4,902 nucleotides of DNA from a virus (Duplodnaviria; Heunggongvirae; Uroviricota; Caudoviricetes): IMG/VR virus record IMGVR_UViG_3300029102_000236; one strand, 5' to 3'. The position numbers and the translations under genes are program-made. Of this stretch, positions 1,774 through 4,570 are shown one piece after another. The notes beneath the pieces are model-generated. The model saw nothing but the letters and a program-made list of their open reading frames with translations. It ran no database searches and had not been told where the DNA came from. The first letter of the stretch is position 1. Each line of letters begins with the position of its first letter.

Positions 1774-2058
1774 TTATTCAGTGCCGATATTTACCTTTAT
1801 CGCGTATACCTTTACCGGTTTATCACCGAAGTGCGGATGTGTGATTGTCTTCACTTCATATCCGTCATACGGAACATCAACTCTGCGGCTGGAATCGTCG
1901 CGCTTCGGATATCCCTTTGTGATAATCAGGCGGTCATGCTTACGGTTAACGAGGCGCTTTTTCCAGTAGTCATTACACAGGCGATACTCTTCCGTTTTCT
2001 CTCCGCGAATCATGGCATCGAAGTATTCACCTTTAACGGCAAGTTGCAGGTTAGCCAC
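1774..2058 (-). CDS. ASCH/PUA-like small beta-barrel protein, 94 aa, GTG start
   Basis: The ORF is open to 2142, but the GTG at 2058-2056 is preceded by AAGGAG (plus coords 2065-2070) at 6-nt spacing and gives a minimal overlap with the upstream gene. N-terminus (V/M)ANLQLAVKGEYFDAMIRGEKTEEYRL matches the ASCH-type signature (K-x-E-Y-F-x-A-I-x-x-G-x-K-T-x-E-x-R) as I recall it. Overlaps the stop region of the upstream MazG-like gene by 8 nt. Confidence 0.6.
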   Translation of the reverse strand: MANLQLAVKGEYFDAMIRGEKTEEYRLCNDYWKKRLVNRKHDRLIITKGYPKRDDSSRRVDVPYDGYEVKTITHPHFGDKPVKVYAIKVNIGTE

Positions 2059-2791
2059 GGTTAACTCCTTGCTGTGTGGCGTCGAGTAATAAATCCCACA
2101 ACCGCTGAGAGCAATTTCCGCATGTACAGCGTTGACCCACAACGTTTATCGCGTTGCTGATTTCCGGCGTTACCTGTTTAGGAACCATAACCCAACCATC
2201 CGGAGTTACCGGAAGCGAGAACGGCAGCACATCTCTGTGAACAAGTTTTTGCTGTGACAGGTTATCCAGAACTTTCTGTACTGCTGCATCACCGAATACA
2301 CCAAGCGCATCTGCCATAACTCCTACAACCTGATAAGCCTCAGCGCATACCGTGGATAAACCATCCGGAATTACCGGAGAGTTGCCGGGTTCTTTAATGT
2401 GCAAGCGAGGCTCACCATCTTTTGGCTCAGGCCACTGGCGCTCCATGTTGATCTTCAATTTATCTTCCATAGCAACGGTAATTTCAGCATCGCTGATGCC
2501 AGCACGGCGCTGTGCATCCCACAACAGAAACTGCATATCAGCCCACTCGCTAAGATCGTCTGGTTCGGCTGCGGCTTCCAGTGCCTCTTTTGAGAGGTGT
2601 TTCAGTGGACCAATGGGGCCAACGCAGCCAAATGTGGAGTCAGACCATTTGGCATGCTCGTGGCGAATCTGTTCGCGTTCCAGTGATGCCAGTGCAATTC
2701 GTGCTAGTTCCATTTGTTCGCCACGAGTAAGCCCGTTTTCAAGCGGATTTTTAATGAACAATTCAATACGTTCTTTGGTAATAGTGGTCAT
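2051..2791 (-). CDS. Modular protein with a MazG/HisE-like NTP pyrophosphohydrolase domain (DUF550-like), 246 aa
   Basis: ATG at 2791-2789 overlaps the TGA of the upstream gene (ATGA). The central region KEALEAAAEPDDLSEWADMQFLLWDAQRRAGISDAEITVAMEDKLKINMERQ resembles the all-alpha MazG helix pair (acidic E-x-x-E helix, then D-x-x-L-W-x-L...G-I-x...KL-x-KN-x-R). It is followed by the linker GNSPVIPDG and a C-terminal module containing C-x-C-x2-C (RCTCGNC). The N-terminal approx 45 aa are paralogous to the ORF at 3550-3804. Confidence 0.7.
   Translation of the reverse strand: MTTITKERIELFIKNPLENGLTRGEQMELARIALASLEREQIRHEHAKWSDSTFGCVGPIGPLKHLSKEALEAAAEPDDLSEWADMQFLLWDAQRRAGISDAEITVAMEDKLKINMERQWPEPKDGEPRLHIKEPGNSPVIPDGLSTVCAEAYQVVGVMADALGVFGDAAVQKVLDNLSQQKLVHRDVLPFSLPVTPDGWVMVPKQVTPEISNAINVVGQRCTCGNCSQRLWDLLLDATQQGVNRG
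2367..2384. repeat. Dispersed 18-mer ggaattaccggagagttg, copy 1 (encodes the NSPVIP linker of the MazG-like protein)
   Basis: Exact 18/18 match to 3354-3371. Both copies encode N-S-P-V-I-P in the reading frame of their respective genes. Confidence 0.9.
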
Positions 2792-2997
2792 GTGTTAATC
2801 CTCAAAACTTTATGCCCGGGCGCAAAAGTACGTGTTTTGTCTTTGCTTATTCGCCACCCGTCTTTACGGGCCTCTTTTGCACAACCAGACCATGACGTAC
2901 CGATATACTCACCGAAGTCTGGCACTGGATATACACCTTCCGTACACTGGCGACAATCACAATAGAGATGCATGGTGTAACTTGCGGCAATAGCCAT
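2788..2997 (-). CDS. Small Cys-rich protein, 69 aa (hypothetical)
   Basis: The ORF is open to 3039, but the ATG at 2997-2995 lies 1 nt after the TGA of the upstream gene and is preceded by AAGAGAG. Its TGA stop overlaps the ATG of the downstream gene (ATGA at 2791-2788). Contains HLYCDCRQC (C-x-C-x2-C) plus a fourth Cys, a possible metal-binding knuckle. Confidence 0.55.
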   Translation of the reverse strand: MAIAASYTMHLYCDCRQCTEGVYPVPDFGEYIGTSWSGCAKEARKDGWRISKDKTRTFAPGHKVLRINT

Positions 2998-2998
2998 A

Positions 2999-3607
2999 TC
3001 ACTCTCTTTTTCCCTGAAGCATGGCAGCGTGGCAGGCATCCTCTACGCCCTTAACTGCATCTGCGCAGTAGTTATAGCGATTGCATTCCACTAACTTCTG
3101 CCTGAGATTTTCAATTGCTTGCGCGACATCAGCCTGTATTACAGGAACTGGCGGAACGGCTGTCTGCTGCTCTCGAACGTCATTAGTCGCTATCGGTTCT
3201 GCTGCCAACTGACTGGCATATTTGTTAATGGTAACGATAAGCTCTTGCTCAGCCTCATCCAGACAATCACCGATACCTCGCCTGTCGCCGTCAAAATCAT
3301 CGAAATCAGCATGAACTCTGGCAAATTTCAGGATTGCGGACAACACCTCACCAGGAATTACCGGAGAGTTGGTTGACGTTTCCGAAATTTCCCGAAAATT
3401 ATTGGTTGACGAATTCGCGTTTTCCCGAAAGTTTCCGGCATGAAGCATAGCCGCGCGGCAGGCGTTCCAGCCTCTCACCTCTGCAATAGCGGCAACAGCA
3501 TCGACCGCGTACATGCTAAGAGGGTTAGGCATTGGTTTTTCTTCAGGTACTACTGGCACTGGCTTGGCATATATAGCGGCTGAACATACCAACCCTTTGA
3601 TAACCAA
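2999..3607 (-). CDS. Modular accessory protein with PV(I/V)P linkers and an internal 11-aa tandem repeat; maximal ORF 202 codons, possibly the frameshifted continuation of ORF 3550-3804
   Basis: Frame is open from TTG 3607 to TGA 3001-2999. The first ATG is at 3532-3530 with only a weak RBS. Conserved linker motifs KPVPVVPEE (residues 15-23, upstream of the first ATG), NSPVIPGE (80-87) and VPPVPVIQ (151-158) indicate the frame is genuinely coding from its 5' end. Overlaps the upstream ORF by 58 nt in the -1 frame. Confidence 0.6.
   Translation of the reverse strand: MVIKGLVCSAAIYAKPVPVVPEEKPMPNPLSMYAVDAVAAIAEVRGWNACRAAMLHAGNFRENANSSTNNFREISETSTNSPVIPGEVLSAILKFARVHADFDDFDGDRRGIGDCLDEAEQELIVTINKYASQLAAEPIATNDVREQQTAVPPVPVIQADVAQAIENLRQKLVECNRYNYCADAVKGVEDACHAAMLQGKRE
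3354..3371. repeat. Dispersed 18-mer ggaattaccggagagttg, copy 2 (encodes the NSPVIP linker of the 202-codon ORF)
   Basis: Exact 18/18 match to 2367-2384, in frame, immediately downstream of the 33-bp tandem repeat. Confidence 0.9.
3369..3434. repeat. Imperfect 33-bp tandem duplication (2 units) inside the CDS 2999-3607
   Basis: Unit 1 is 3369-3401 (ttggttgacgtttccgaaatttcccgaaaatta) and unit 2 is 3402-3434 (ttggttgacgaattcgcgttttcccgaaagttt), about 25/33 identical. The first 10 nt and the tttcccgaaa core are identical. It encodes the in-frame peptide repeat NFRENANSSTN / NFREISETSTN. Confidence 0.85.
3541..3556. repeat. Dispersed 16-mer cttcNggtactactgg, copy 1 (encodes PVVPE in the frame of the 202-codon ORF)
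   Basis: 15/16 identical to 3946-3961 in the Ea22-like gene. In the frame of ORF 3550-3804 the same bases read CAG TAG and supply its stop codon. Confidence 0.8.
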
Positions 3608-3804
3608 CTGTCAGCAATGTTTTTACTCCTCGTTATTGCCGGAATACCTAAGCCATTGTCTGAATGCAGCCATGCCACCGGATTCTCTTCCAGCGATGCC
3701 AGAGCAATTTCATAAGCCCGGCGCTCAACATTGTCTCGCACATCCAAACTGCTGATACGCTCTTTGATTTCTTTAATCAGTTCTTTGTCGGTAAAAGTGC
3801 TCAT
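3550..3804 (-). CDS. Small ORF encoding a conserved N-terminal leader module, 84 aa; paralogous to the N-terminus of the MazG-like protein and possibly the 5' part of a split gene
   Basis: ATG at 3804-3802 is preceded by GGAG at 6-nt spacing and lies 1 nt after the TGA of the Ea22-like gene. The ORF track start at 3825 is a TTG with no RBS. N-terminus MSTFTDKELIKEIKERIS...AYEIALASLEE aligns with MTTITKERIELFIKN...LARIALASLERE of the 246-aa protein. Stop TAG at 3552-3550 falls inside a conserved linker-coding 16-mer. Confidence 0.55.
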   Translation of the reverse strand: MSTFTDKELIKEIKERISSLDVRDNVERRAYEIALASLEENPVAWLHSDNGLGIPAITRSKNIADSWLSKGWYVQPLYMPSQCQ

Positions 3805-3805
3805 A

Positions 3806-4570
3806 TCAATCTCCATTGGTATCAATGTTTACAGCCTGACAAGACTCTTTGAGCACCCAGTCAATAGCGTCTTTCCATGCCTCTGTTTCGACTGGTGGAT
3901 TTTCACGCTTAACCTGTTCATAGAAGCGCACTGCTTTAACCAGTCCTTCCGGTACTACTGGTGATGGCTGTTTAGCTTCTAAATCAGCAATTCTGTCAAC
4001 CACGGCATCGACAGCATCTGAAAAGCCGAACCAGTTGCTCCACTCCGGCTCATCCCCGGTTGCTGCAAAGTACATATCTGCTAAAGCAGATTCAGCATGG
4101 TCACGCTCGTTAATGAGTTGCTCTTCGCTTTTCTCCAGTTCAGCAATACGCTTACCCCCATCCGAGATAACACCTTCGTAATACTCACGCTGCTCGTTGA
4201 GTTTTGATTTTGTCTCCTCAAGCTCAACTCTCAGCTTCCCAACAGTAAGAGCAATATCCTCGTTCTCCTGGTCGCGGCGTTTTATGTATTGCTGGTTTCT
4301 TTCCCGTTCATCCAGCAGTGCCAGCACAGTAGCCGGATTGGCTGCGGCGATGAATTCAGCATTGGCCTGCTGTTCCATTTGGAAATCTTCATCGAAACCG
4401 CTTTCTGGATGCGCTCCTTCAATTCTGCAAATGGGAATATATCCAGCAACTTCACGATGAATTAGCGCATAATCACCATCAAATCGGCTCTCTCCATATT
4501 CGAGCGACCACTCACCACACGTTGCTTTTTCTGCCGCTTCACGCAGTGCCTGATAGTTAATTTCGCTCAC
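3806..4570 (-). CDS. ea22: Ea22-like protein (lambdoid early-left accessory protein with central coiled coil), 254 aa
   Basis: GTG start at 4570-4568 overlaps the TGA of the upstream TraR-like gene (GTGA) and is preceded by GAGAGG at 6-nt spacing. The central segment LLDERERNQQYIKRRDQENEDIALTVGKLRVELEETKSKLNEQREYYEGVISDGGKRIAELE matches, as I remember it, the conserved core of phage lambda Ea22. N-terminus MSEINYQALREAAE is likewise Ea22-like. The C-terminal part follows an SPVVPEG linker. Confidence 0.85.
   Translation of the reverse strand: MSEINYQALREAAEKATCGEWSLEYGESRFDGDYALIHREVAGYIPICRIEGAHPESGFDEDFQMEQQANAEFIAAANPATVLALLDERERNQQYIKRRDQENEDIALTVGKLRVELEETKSKLNEQREYYEGVISDGGKRIAELEKSEEQLINERDHAESALADMYFAATGDEPEWSNWFGFSDAVDAVVDRIADLEAKQPSPVVPEGLVKAVRFYEQVKRENPPVETEAWKDAIDWVLKESCQAVNIDTNGD
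3946..3961. repeat. Dispersed 16-mer cttcNggtactactgg, copy 2 (encodes the SPVVPEG linker of the Ea22-like protein)
   Basis: 15/16 identical to 3541-3556; encodes P-V-V-P-E in the Ea22-like reading frame. Confidence 0.8.

Follow-up and report, generated by a model that had tools for sequence, protein, structure and literature searches.

Conserved in-frame connector DNA between unrelated domain cassettes in early accessory genes of a lambdoid prophage arm

Modular genes and connectors of the window

The DNA considered here, a stretch of 4,902 nucleotides (nt) from a virus of the Caudoviricetes (IMG/VR record IMGVR_UViG_3300029102_000236) that is called the window in its full length hereafter, is on sequence grounds the int-proximal "ea" or exo-xis arm of a phage-21-type lambdoid prophage, with every gene on the minus strand. 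It contains three modular genes, namely an Ea22-like gene (3806-4570), a frameshifted gene (2999-3804) and a DUF550 gene (2051-2791), and the short in-frame connectors between their modules are the subject of this report. A first-pass annotation had described these genes as modules separated by short Pro/Val linkers, and all six linker peptides that it named (SPVVPEG, KPVPVVPEE, NSPVIPGE, VPPVPVIQ, NSPVIPDG and LPVTPDG) are present in the translations of the open reading frames (ORFs). The modular build thereby stands, but the two ORFs at 3550-3804 and 2999-3607, which it had paired, are a single gene with a 1-nt deletion.

The Ea22-like gene matches the Pfam family Ead_Ea22 (PF13935) over residues 2-146 with 138.1 bits against a cut-off of 27 (E 4e-40), and the Prokaryotic Genome Annotation Pipeline (PGAP) gives its product as 'ead/Ea22-like'. 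Its Ead/Ea22 N-domain, which includes a coiled coil, is followed by a middle module, the PVVP-type connector SPVVPEG (3944-3964) and a C-terminal cassette. The frameshifted gene, seen as ORFs 3550-3804(3825) and 2999-3607, begins with a leader (variant 2, 3688-3804) that matches the profiles phrog_3323 and phrog_660 and ends in the peptide IALASLE (3688-3708); a block containing this leader (3670-3804) is found alone in other loci. Downstream lie a second PVVP-type connector, KPVPVVPEE (3539-3565), an internal cassette EEKPMPNPLSMYAVDAVAAIAEVR (3474-3554), and the connector (G)WNACRAAML (3443-3473), which coincides with a peak of breakpoints at 3432-3443. A 33-nt tandem duplication (3369-3433), coding for NFRENANSSTN and NFREISETSTN, forms a low-complexity spacer before the next connector, NSPVIPGE (3347-3371, with the peptide at 3347-3370). 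The remainder of the gene contains the connector VPPVPVIQ (3134-3157) and, near the C-terminus, a second AC(H)AAML motif (3017-3037), at which six distinct endpoints fall; the block 3141-3562 is found alone elsewhere. Short tandem low-complexity repeats, such as NAESRCG...NAESRCG and QNIPENIPGG, occupy the spacer position in other loci too, and their place beside connectors suggests slippage or unequal exchange there.

The DUF550 gene comprises a leader, the DUF550 domain, an NSPVIP connector, a helical module, an LPVTPDGW connector and a C-terminal cassette. Its leader (variant 1, 2678-2791) likewise ends in IALASLE (2678-2698), and endpoints cluster at 2676-2699. The DUF550 domain (2381-2668, residues 42-137) covers profile positions 1-96 of 97 in Pfam PF04447 (dATP-dGTP_PPHyd/DUF550) with 141.8 bits (cut-off 23, E 8e-42), which identifies it as a predicted dATP/dGTP pyrophosphohydrolase, and the block 2359-2699 that holds it is found alone elsewhere. 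The connector NSPVIPDG (2360-2384, peptide 2360-2383) follows, and after the helical module comes LPVTPDGW (2192-2215, with LPVTPDG at 2195-2215), whose 3' half matches the NSPVIPDGW core and at which blocks begin (2192). The C-terminal cassette VMVPKQVTPE...QGVNRG (2051-2191) fills a slot that is held elsewhere by DUF551 and other modules. In many homologues DUF551 stands in the slot after LPVTPDGW, NSPVIPDGW or VPPVPVTPDGW; a profile search with Pfam PF04448 (DUF551) gave no match in any ORF of the window.

The connectors lie between domains, as the first-pass annotation had supposed. The Pfam edge of DUF550, at residue 137, is the N of NSPVIP, and in three unrelated proteins DUF551 sets in at the G/W directly after NSPVIPD; most of the shuffled modules are without a Pfam family. 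AlphaFold2 models from shallow mosaic alignments, with a mean predicted local distance difference test score (pLDDT) of 41 for ORF 2051-2791 and 44 for ORF 2999-3607, are unusable for three-dimensional comparison; in the secondary structure that these low-pLDDT models predict, the Pro-rich linkers lie in coil between helices. Searches of PDB sequences with the DUF550 and Ea22-like proteins returned nothing useful.

In the PGAP annotation of one matching locus (L001) the DUF550 ORF is divided into a coding sequence at 2051-2614 and a 'partial' pseudogene at 2666-2791, and a frameshifted pseudogene (3353-3804) ends exactly at the 18-mer described below. The labels 'partial' and 'frameshifted' arise because the best-hit proteins stop at connectors, and these splits look like annotation artefacts.

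Connector repeats within the window

The 18-mer GGAATTACCGGAGAGTTG, which codes for N-S-P-V-I-P, occurs in exactly two copies (2367-2384 and 3354-3371), as the first-pass annotation had noted, far above the chance expectation of about 2e-4 for an exact 18-mer pair in 4.9 kb. Over 23 nt the two copies still agree at 91%, and LPVTPDG is coded by a third, weaker copy (2197-2219). The 16-mer CTTCNGGTACTACTGG is likewise found where it had been reported, at 3541-3556 within KPVPVVPEE and 3946-3961 within SPVVPEG, with 15 of 16 positions matching and an extension to 24 nt at 83%. Pairs of this type are expected about 0.1 times per window, and the match is marginal on its own; the comparative data given below confirm that it is meaningful. 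Beyond these, the DNA coding for IALASLE is identical at 20 of 22 positions between 2678-2699 and 3688-3709, and a repeat that had escaped notice codes for AC(R/H)AAML at 3441-3463 and 3015-3037 (87% identity). Every connector copy has the same orientation, as a direct repeat on the coding strand.

The leaders had been taken for paralogous N-termini, common to the family and carrying swappable cargo. The leaders of the DUF550 and frameshifted genes do match the same two profiles, phrog_3323 and phrog_660, but their BLASTP alignment covers only IALASLE (E 0.007). They are moreover shared by two of the three genes, the N-terminus of the Ea22-like protein being different. The cargo is indeed swapped, but so is the leader, of which at least three variants exist.

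Spread of the NSPVIP connector among phages

The exact 18-mer is present in at least 120 IMG/VR viral contigs, and almost every listed copy codes for (G)NSPVIP in frame within an ORF. It is preceded by modules such as DUF550, ...WNACRAAMLQAG, MQFDDGRTC..., DVSTCDAD... and IHNCERCGDEGW..., and followed by the DUF551-type DGWISCSERMP..., DGWVMVPKE...AAAPQ, DGLSTVCAEAY, GEVLSAI... or DCWCRTCRP.... Among the matches listed, the flanks fall into 51 upstream and 51 downstream clusters that are joined in 80 combinations, and conservation is lost about 5 nt from the 18-mer core on its upstream side and 10-12 nt from it on the downstream side.

Since this first set had been chosen by the exact 18-mer, GNSPVIPDGW was also searched for with any codons, which gave 98 non-redundant junctions with 61 upstream and 66 downstream clusters. 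The codons at these junctions are nearly invariant (GGC 93%, AAC 98%, TCT 99%, CCG 97%, ATT 93%, CCG 94%, GAT 99% and GGT 92%), the sole split codon being that of valine (GTG 58, GTA 37). In the adjoining conserved peptide CSERMP the synonymous sites are free, with Arg coded by CGG in 18 and CGA in 12 instances, Pro by four codons, and Cys by TGC in 19 and TGT in 13. The loci, 1.06 Mb in all, contain 121 exact copies of the 18-mer, against only 3 that have 1-3 mismatches. The frozen codons, taken together with the wide spread of the connector, therefore indicate that NSPVIP is conserved as DNA well past the requirement of the peptide.

This spread agrees with the expectation that linker identity would recur in other genomes. 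An identical 23-mer version is found between different modules in species-representative genomes of about 12 genera of Enterobacterales, including Trabulsiella, several Enterobacter species, Brenneria, Shimwellia, Erwinia, Scandinavium, Hafnia, Pseudocitrobacter and others. By blastn the connector is present in 480 deposited phage records (Escherichia, Stx-converting, Salmonella P22-like, Klebsiella, Shigella and Enterobacter), where the proteins are annotated as EaA, DUF551 or hypothetical. A megablast search with a 33-mer, which needs 28 exact bases and so undercounts, found it in 420 of 5426 E. coli genomes and 5 phage records. Relatives of the int, xis, TraR or exo genes of the window are carried by 59 of 135 long loci; because the connector-carrying phages are diverse, this low sharing of marker genes tells little. 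The exact 23-mer also occurs in a contig (NODE_5) of the assembly of Chryseobacterium sp. 18061, in a typical enterobacterial DUF550-NSPVIP-DGWIMVPKE gene, and this instance in a Bacteroidota assembly is probably contamination or a mislabelled contig.

Further connectors and their fixed order

An assumption-free search for 14-mers that occur in many contexts recovered the NSPVIP core together with ACRAAMLQ (GCCTGCCGCGCCGCCATGCTTCAGG), whose contexts are very diverse, IALASLE (ATCGCGCTGGCATCGCTCGAAG), a second leader start MSNIDKQ, AAAPQQE and THWMP. Codon usage is constrained in these as well, both in ACRAAML (GCC 94%, TGC 92%, CGC 88%, CTT 69%) and in IALASLE (CTG 96%, GCA 90%, TCG 94%). A scan of viral contigs with the 16-mer chiefly returned unrelated Pro/Val-rich environmental sequences, and the PVVP analysis was therefore repeated on independently collected loci, in which PVVP(D/E) joins modules in 30 combinations with CCG at 83%, GTA at 100% and GTG at 80% (consensus CAGCCAGCGCCGGTAGTGCCGGAK). 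The version in the window, CCAGTAGTACCNGAA, is a minority allele. All PV connectors have the skeleton CCG GTA NNN CCG GAK in common, and the window itself belongs to the connector family by its two exact 18-mers, its LPVTPDGW variant and its two PVVPE copies.

Along the proteins the connectors follow one order, namely IALASLE, PVVP, AAMLQ, NSPVIP, and then AAAPQ or WMPLP. Among 251 ORFs, AAMLQ precedes NSPVIP in 102 cases against 2, PVVP precedes AAMLQ in 30 against 4, and NSPVIP precedes WMPLP in 75 against none; the frameshifted gene of the window, read from 3804 to 2999, keeps the order IALASLE, PVVPE, ACRAAML, NSPVIP. In the loci L003-L425 unrelated C-terminal cassettes share similar short tails (...AAAPQQE.., ...WMPLPEPPQEVNRG and ...QGVNRG). 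Since these reach into the start region of the following gene, the 3' gene boundary also acts as a conserved connector.

Breakpoints and natural recombinants

Where two NSPVIP loci share the upstream module (at least 93% identity) and have unrelated downstream modules, similarity is lost between +19 and +31, counted from the AAC codon, in 155 of 202 pairs; where the downstream module is shared and the upstream modules are unrelated, divergence begins at -1 to -8 in 73 of 79 pairs. A linker-independent sample of 80 loci, small and made up of close relatives, was collected through the TraR gene. In these loci, recurring blocks of the window (2192-2806, 2359-2791, 2359-2699, 2192-2699, 3011-3562, 3141-3562 and 3670-3804) end at LPVTPDGW, NSPVIP, IALASLE, VPPVPV, PVVPE or gene boundaries. 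Altogether 94 distinct endpoints lie in 2051-4570, with 21 at IALASLE or AC(R/H)AAML (8.1% of the length, p 2e-5) and 17 at gene boundaries (5.7% of the length). Between 2051 and 4000, 52 of the 54 distinct endpoints are at PV linkers, other connectors or gene boundaries, which bears out the proposal that breakpoints among homologues fall at the linkers. It needs amending in that the PV linkers taken alone are modestly enriched, and the distribution of endpoints thus marks them as real junctions within a larger, ordered set of connectors. Inside the Ea22-like gene, endpoints in 4123-4531 lie at about 4130, 4210-4220, 4300-4366 and 4521; they may be further recombination joints or mere patches of divergence.

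Homologues of the DUF550 protein have an invariant central block, with three different leaders before IALASLE, and many are 98-99% identical up to LPVTPDGW and then continue into differing cassettes, mostly variants of DUF551. One homologue (P0209) switches at the VPPVPVIQ position to VPPVPVTPDGW, followed by DUF551. In another (P0003) the leader of the window ORF 3550-3804 is joined at IALASLE to DUF550. In several contigs (L195, L142, L156 and L385) the upstream part of the window Ea22 protein (...DRIADLEAKQPS-PVVPE) continues from its SPVVPEG site directly into EKPMPNPLSMY..., the module that follows the second PVVPE of the window. Judged by their sequences, these two kinds of fusion are the products expected from the IALASLE and PVVPE repeat pairs of the window, and natural recombinants are known for three of its four repeat types. 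The direct products of the NSPVIP pair (...ETSTNSPVIP-DGLSTV and ...KEPGNSPVIP-GEVLSAI) were not found in the sample; both downstream modules of the pair do occur with other upstream partners.

The closest view of an exchange is provided by a triad made up of the window and two other loci. The same prophage arm in E. coli HVH109 (L426) differs from the window over 4809 nt by a single-nucleotide polymorphism at 3312, the replacement of 3474-3554 by an unrelated sequence and a 1-nt indel at 3568, and another locus (L428) shows the other arrangement. Window positions 3571-3830 are identical to the former (100%) and 2042-3541 to the latter (100%), and from 3451 downstream all three agree except for scattered single-base differences at 3302-3331. 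The crossover is thereby confined to the 8-nt interval CCAGTGCC (3555-3562) within the KPVPVVPEE connector, and the other border of the swapped cassette is GWNACRAAML. The HVH109 locus encodes an intact homologue of 259 amino acids (P0134, ...GWYVQPLYIAKPVPVVPD...), whereas an A is missing from CTATATAT[A]GCC in the window, between 3568 and 3569 (site 3567-3570), which makes the ORFs 3550-3804 and 2999-3607 parts of a single gene that PGAP, too, flags as 'frameshifted'. Only 6 nt separate this deletion from the crossover interval, and the same recombination event may have left it behind as a scar.

A possible mechanism and its alternatives

The best explanation is probably that short-homology recombination at the in-frame connectors swaps domain cassettes. 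The DNA conservation of the connectors, their combinatorial contexts, the nucleotide-level breakpoints, the collinear order and the natural triad are direct observations. The three genes are members of a very large early-left ("ea"/exo-xis) family whose accessory proteins are found in temperate phages of Enterobacterales, both lambda-like and P22-like. Each protein consists of unrelated cassettes in slots of fixed order, with short connectors between them that would code for flexible Pro/Val-rich or short helical junctions. The slots are bounded by a leader ending in IALASLE, (Q)PAPVVP(D/E), (W)NACRAAMLQ, GNSPVIPDGW (or LPVTPDGW), and an AAAPQ or WMPLPEPP end. As the connector codons are frozen, any two members share in-frame identity, about 17-34 nt at NSPVIP and less at PVVP, within which related phages or prophages in the same cell could recombine. 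Because the connectors are in frame and in fixed order, a single crossover would swap everything downstream and a double crossover a single cassette, leaving the protein unscrambled; the frame would always be kept and the joint would always fall at a domain boundary. Repeated exchange may in turn homogenize the connector DNA. The enzymes would be phage annealases of the Red-beta, RecT or Erf type, or RecA, with template switching at microhomology as a further candidate, and diversifying selection on the accessory proteins may drive the turnover. Thus, of the proposal that linker DNA serves as homology for shuffling, the exchange points are observed, and their use by recombination enzymes is what we infer.

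Between NSPVIP sites with unrelated flanks and the same valine allele, to which pairs the interpretation is confined, runs of identity typically measure 17-34 nt, about 55% of them reaching at least 23 nt and about 35% at least 27 nt. These lengths are comparable to the minimal efficient pairing segments of 23-27 bp for Red-beta and 31-34 bp for RecA (PMC3945230). The valine allele tracks the modules on both sides, with a purity of 0.875 upstream (null 0.75) and 0.889 downstream (null 0.74), an association that fits homology-dependent exchange. The position of the modular genes next to phage recombination genes (exo and bet, or erf) likewise counts in favour of the account.

Several observations weigh against this account. 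The association of the valine allele with modules could reflect host-taxon structure instead, and pairs of sites with different valine alleles have at most about 15 nt of uninterrupted identity. Each scan covers at most 120 matches, and many loci were collected via the connector itself. In the TraR-anchored loci the enrichment of endpoints within 15 nt of PV linkers is weak (18 of 94, against 12.7% of the length, p 0.049), and of the 42 endpoints off PV linkers, other connectors and gene boundaries 40 lie within the Ea22 N-domain and coiled coil. The 16-mer of the window moves together with its cassette, and the one exchange that can be placed to the base relied on just 8 nt of perfect identity, next to a 1-nt deletion. 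Such a joint resembles microhomology or template switching more than classical homologous recombination, and processes of this kind therefore also contribute.

The same two features of the triad are what one would see if illegitimate or microhomology joints formed everywhere and selection kept those at domain boundaries, an account of the Hendrix type in which the identity of connector DNA is a by-product of good protein linkers. The many endpoints at gene boundaries and in the Ea22 coiled coil, away from PV linkers, and the several DNA alleles of the PVVP connectors agree with it. Random joints, however, would not share a 30-nt sequence with 92-99% invariant synonymous sites across 98 module combinations; near-variants of the 18-mer are almost absent, and the neighboring conserved peptide motif does vary synonymously. 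On the whole we regard this account as unlikely. Conservation at the level of the protein only, with the peptide serving as a hinge, a protease site or a partner-binding segment and the DNA identity reflecting recent ancestry with one adjacent module, would agree with the Pro-rich peptides in predicted coil between helices and with the Pfam domain edges that abut the linkers. It is very improbable given that the flanks are unalignable in dozens of contexts while the core is identical to the codon, including the rare TCT and GTA, that the identical 23-mer recurs in Hafnia, Brenneria, Erwinia, Enterobacter and Trabulsiella, and that relatedness switches on both sides of the core.

The connectors might alternatively be sequence-specific signals, namely an imperfect palindrome or hairpin that a recombinase or nuclease of their own would recognise, or a structure that stalls replication, after the manner of integron attC or shufflon sfx sites. 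The core CAACTcTCCGG-TAATT-CCGGAtGGTTG (window 2360-2384; consensus GGCAACTCTCCGGTRATTCCGGATGGTTGG in L003-L325) is a 9/11 inverted repeat with a 5-nt loop, has a predicted single-stranded DNA fold of -7.3 kcal/mol (z -3.2 to -4.2), and carries its sole common polymorphism (GTA/GTG) in the loop, and the CCG GTA NNN CCG GAK skeleton runs through all PV connectors. Yet P-V-x-P-D/E written with the common CCG codon yields CCGG-N5-CCGG almost by default, the second copy in the window is without the 3' arm, and rare variants strike stem and loop at similar rates; compensatory changes were looked for among the variants and none was seen. The non-palindromic IALASLE and ACRAAML moreover behave alike, all copies are direct repeats, and the window codes for no extra recombinase. 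A structural or site-specific mechanism is therefore kept as an alternative of very low probability. A broader reading, which we offer as an improbable speculation, is that the connectors are more than passive homology, namely evolved, sequence-specific 'joints' with a codon-frozen and imperfectly palindromic core of about 30 nt (CCGG-N5-CCGG), folded or bound to trigger breaks or template switching; with their fixed order they would form an in-frame 'protein-domain integron' with which temperate phages of Enterobacterales build early accessory proteins, possibly for host takeover or anti-defence, and which is kept by selection for evolvability.

Relation to known systems

Among known systems, a likeness to cassette exchange at connectors is seen in the tail-fibre adhesins of T-even phages, in which crossovers at short in-frame conserved motifs (His boxes) reportedly swap specificity segments, as is said to have been described by Sandmeier 1994 and Tétart et al. 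1998. In both cases conserved in-frame motifs alternate with hypervariable segments. The tail fibres, however, are structural host-range proteins of virulent phages, whereas the genes described here encode early accessory proteins of temperate phages; their slots hold whole unrelated domains rather than variants of one fold, and the codons are far tighter. The VENN motif of CdiA and the PxxxxDPxGL motif of Rhs proteins delimit C-terminal toxin domains that can be swapped and that have orphan cassettes in their vicinity. They too combine a conserved peptide and DNA motif at a joint where unrelated C-terminal modules recombine, but have one motif where the window family has several ordered connectors per protein; Pfam and PHROGs searches of the window proteins gave no matches to toxin, immunity or secretion families. 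According to the modular theory of Susskind and Botstein and the analysis of HK620, 'linker/boundary sequences' between lambdoid genes are said to direct homologous exchange, a view that is reportedly contested. Those borders are intergenic, whereas the borders in the window are intragenic, at protein-domain joints, and have quantitative support. The shufflon (Rci/sfx), Gin/Cin/Hin and integron (IntI/attC) systems find no counterpart, in that the only recombinase of the window is the integrase (1-1143) with its excisionase, and neither an ORF resembling a reverse transcriptase nor a long template/variable repeat of the kind seen in diversity-generating retroelements is present in the window. 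The system accordingly stands apart by its location inside early accessory genes, its several ordered connectors, its wholly unrelated domains and its almost completely frozen codons.

Ea22 has already been described (PMC7093339, PMC10834534) as a mosaic of a shared N-terminal and coiled-coil part with unrelated 'portable' C-terminal domains, DUF551 among them. These Ea22, EaA, DUF551 and DUF550 mosaics are the same genes as those treated here; in the two papers, as searched by term, the conserved connector DNA, the frozen codons, the order and the connector breakpoints do not appear, the term 'linker' is absent from both, and 'recombin' and 'shuffl' are absent from PMC10834534. A search for the string NSPVIP gave no relevant paper in the openly searchable literature, outside which stand the subscription-only genome papers on HK97/HK022 and HK620, and in the searchable literature we found no earlier description of the connectors. 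Red-beta, RecT and Erf (Rad52-like) are known to recombine short diverged homologies and to drive mosaicism, with intragenic exchanges of about 100 bp being frequent (PMC3945230); that work supplies the enzymology invoked here but concerns general patches of homology, not codon-frozen in-frame connectors at domain boundaries. The exo-xis region has been tied to the lysis-lysogeny decision of lambda and Stx phages (PMC7093339).

The connectors offer an intragenic and abundant test case for the dispute over phage mosaicism, in which random illegitimate joints with selection are set against exchange at conserved linkers; its assets are a frozen in-frame connector of about 30 nt, dozens of modules on each side and isogenic recombinants. 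The fixed order suggests rules for fusing unrelated domains without loss of frame or folding, which could be of use in protein engineering, and the connectors lend themselves to the study of how nature puts together new multi-domain proteins. They also point to a large pool of modules in the exo-xis region, mostly without a Pfam family, and the stopping of homologues at connectors accounts for the artefacts of PGAP annotation.

Genomic setting

Positions 1-4809 of the window are 100% identical to E. coli ATCC 25922 and to the phages ev017 and PhiR57_1, and the insertion site of the prophage adjoins icd. Besides the modular genes, the minus strand encodes the phage integrase (int, 1-1143), the excisionase (xis, 1133-1369), a DUF4222 protein (1509-1748), an ASCH protein (1774-2058), a small Cys-rich ORF (2788-2997) and a TraR/DksA-like protein (4567-4788). 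The "ea"/exo-xis region is transcribed early and in PhiR57_1 runs on into orf61, orf63, orf60a, exo and bet. In a further locus (L002) the recombination genes likewise lie beside the modular genes, in the arrangement TraR-orf61/63/60a-exo-bet, and in the P22-like phage SE1 the connector is found between recombinase genes of the erf type and int.

Stop and start codons of consecutive genes overlap or abut (ATGA at 2788-2791, TGAtATG at 3802-3808 and GTGA at 4567-4570), which is compatible with translational coupling, and the gene boundaries with such codons are also mosaic breakpoints. Phage 21, ev207 and PhiR63_2 match both sides of the window without 2058-4566, which comprises the three modular genes and the small ORF; this block acts as an insertion or deletion whose ends are gene boundaries. 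The best matches among genomes and phages all end at 4809, a position some 20 nt from the TraR start codon on its upstream side. The final 93 nt (4810-4902) come from another mosaic partner, and one contig (L377) matches 4809-4873.

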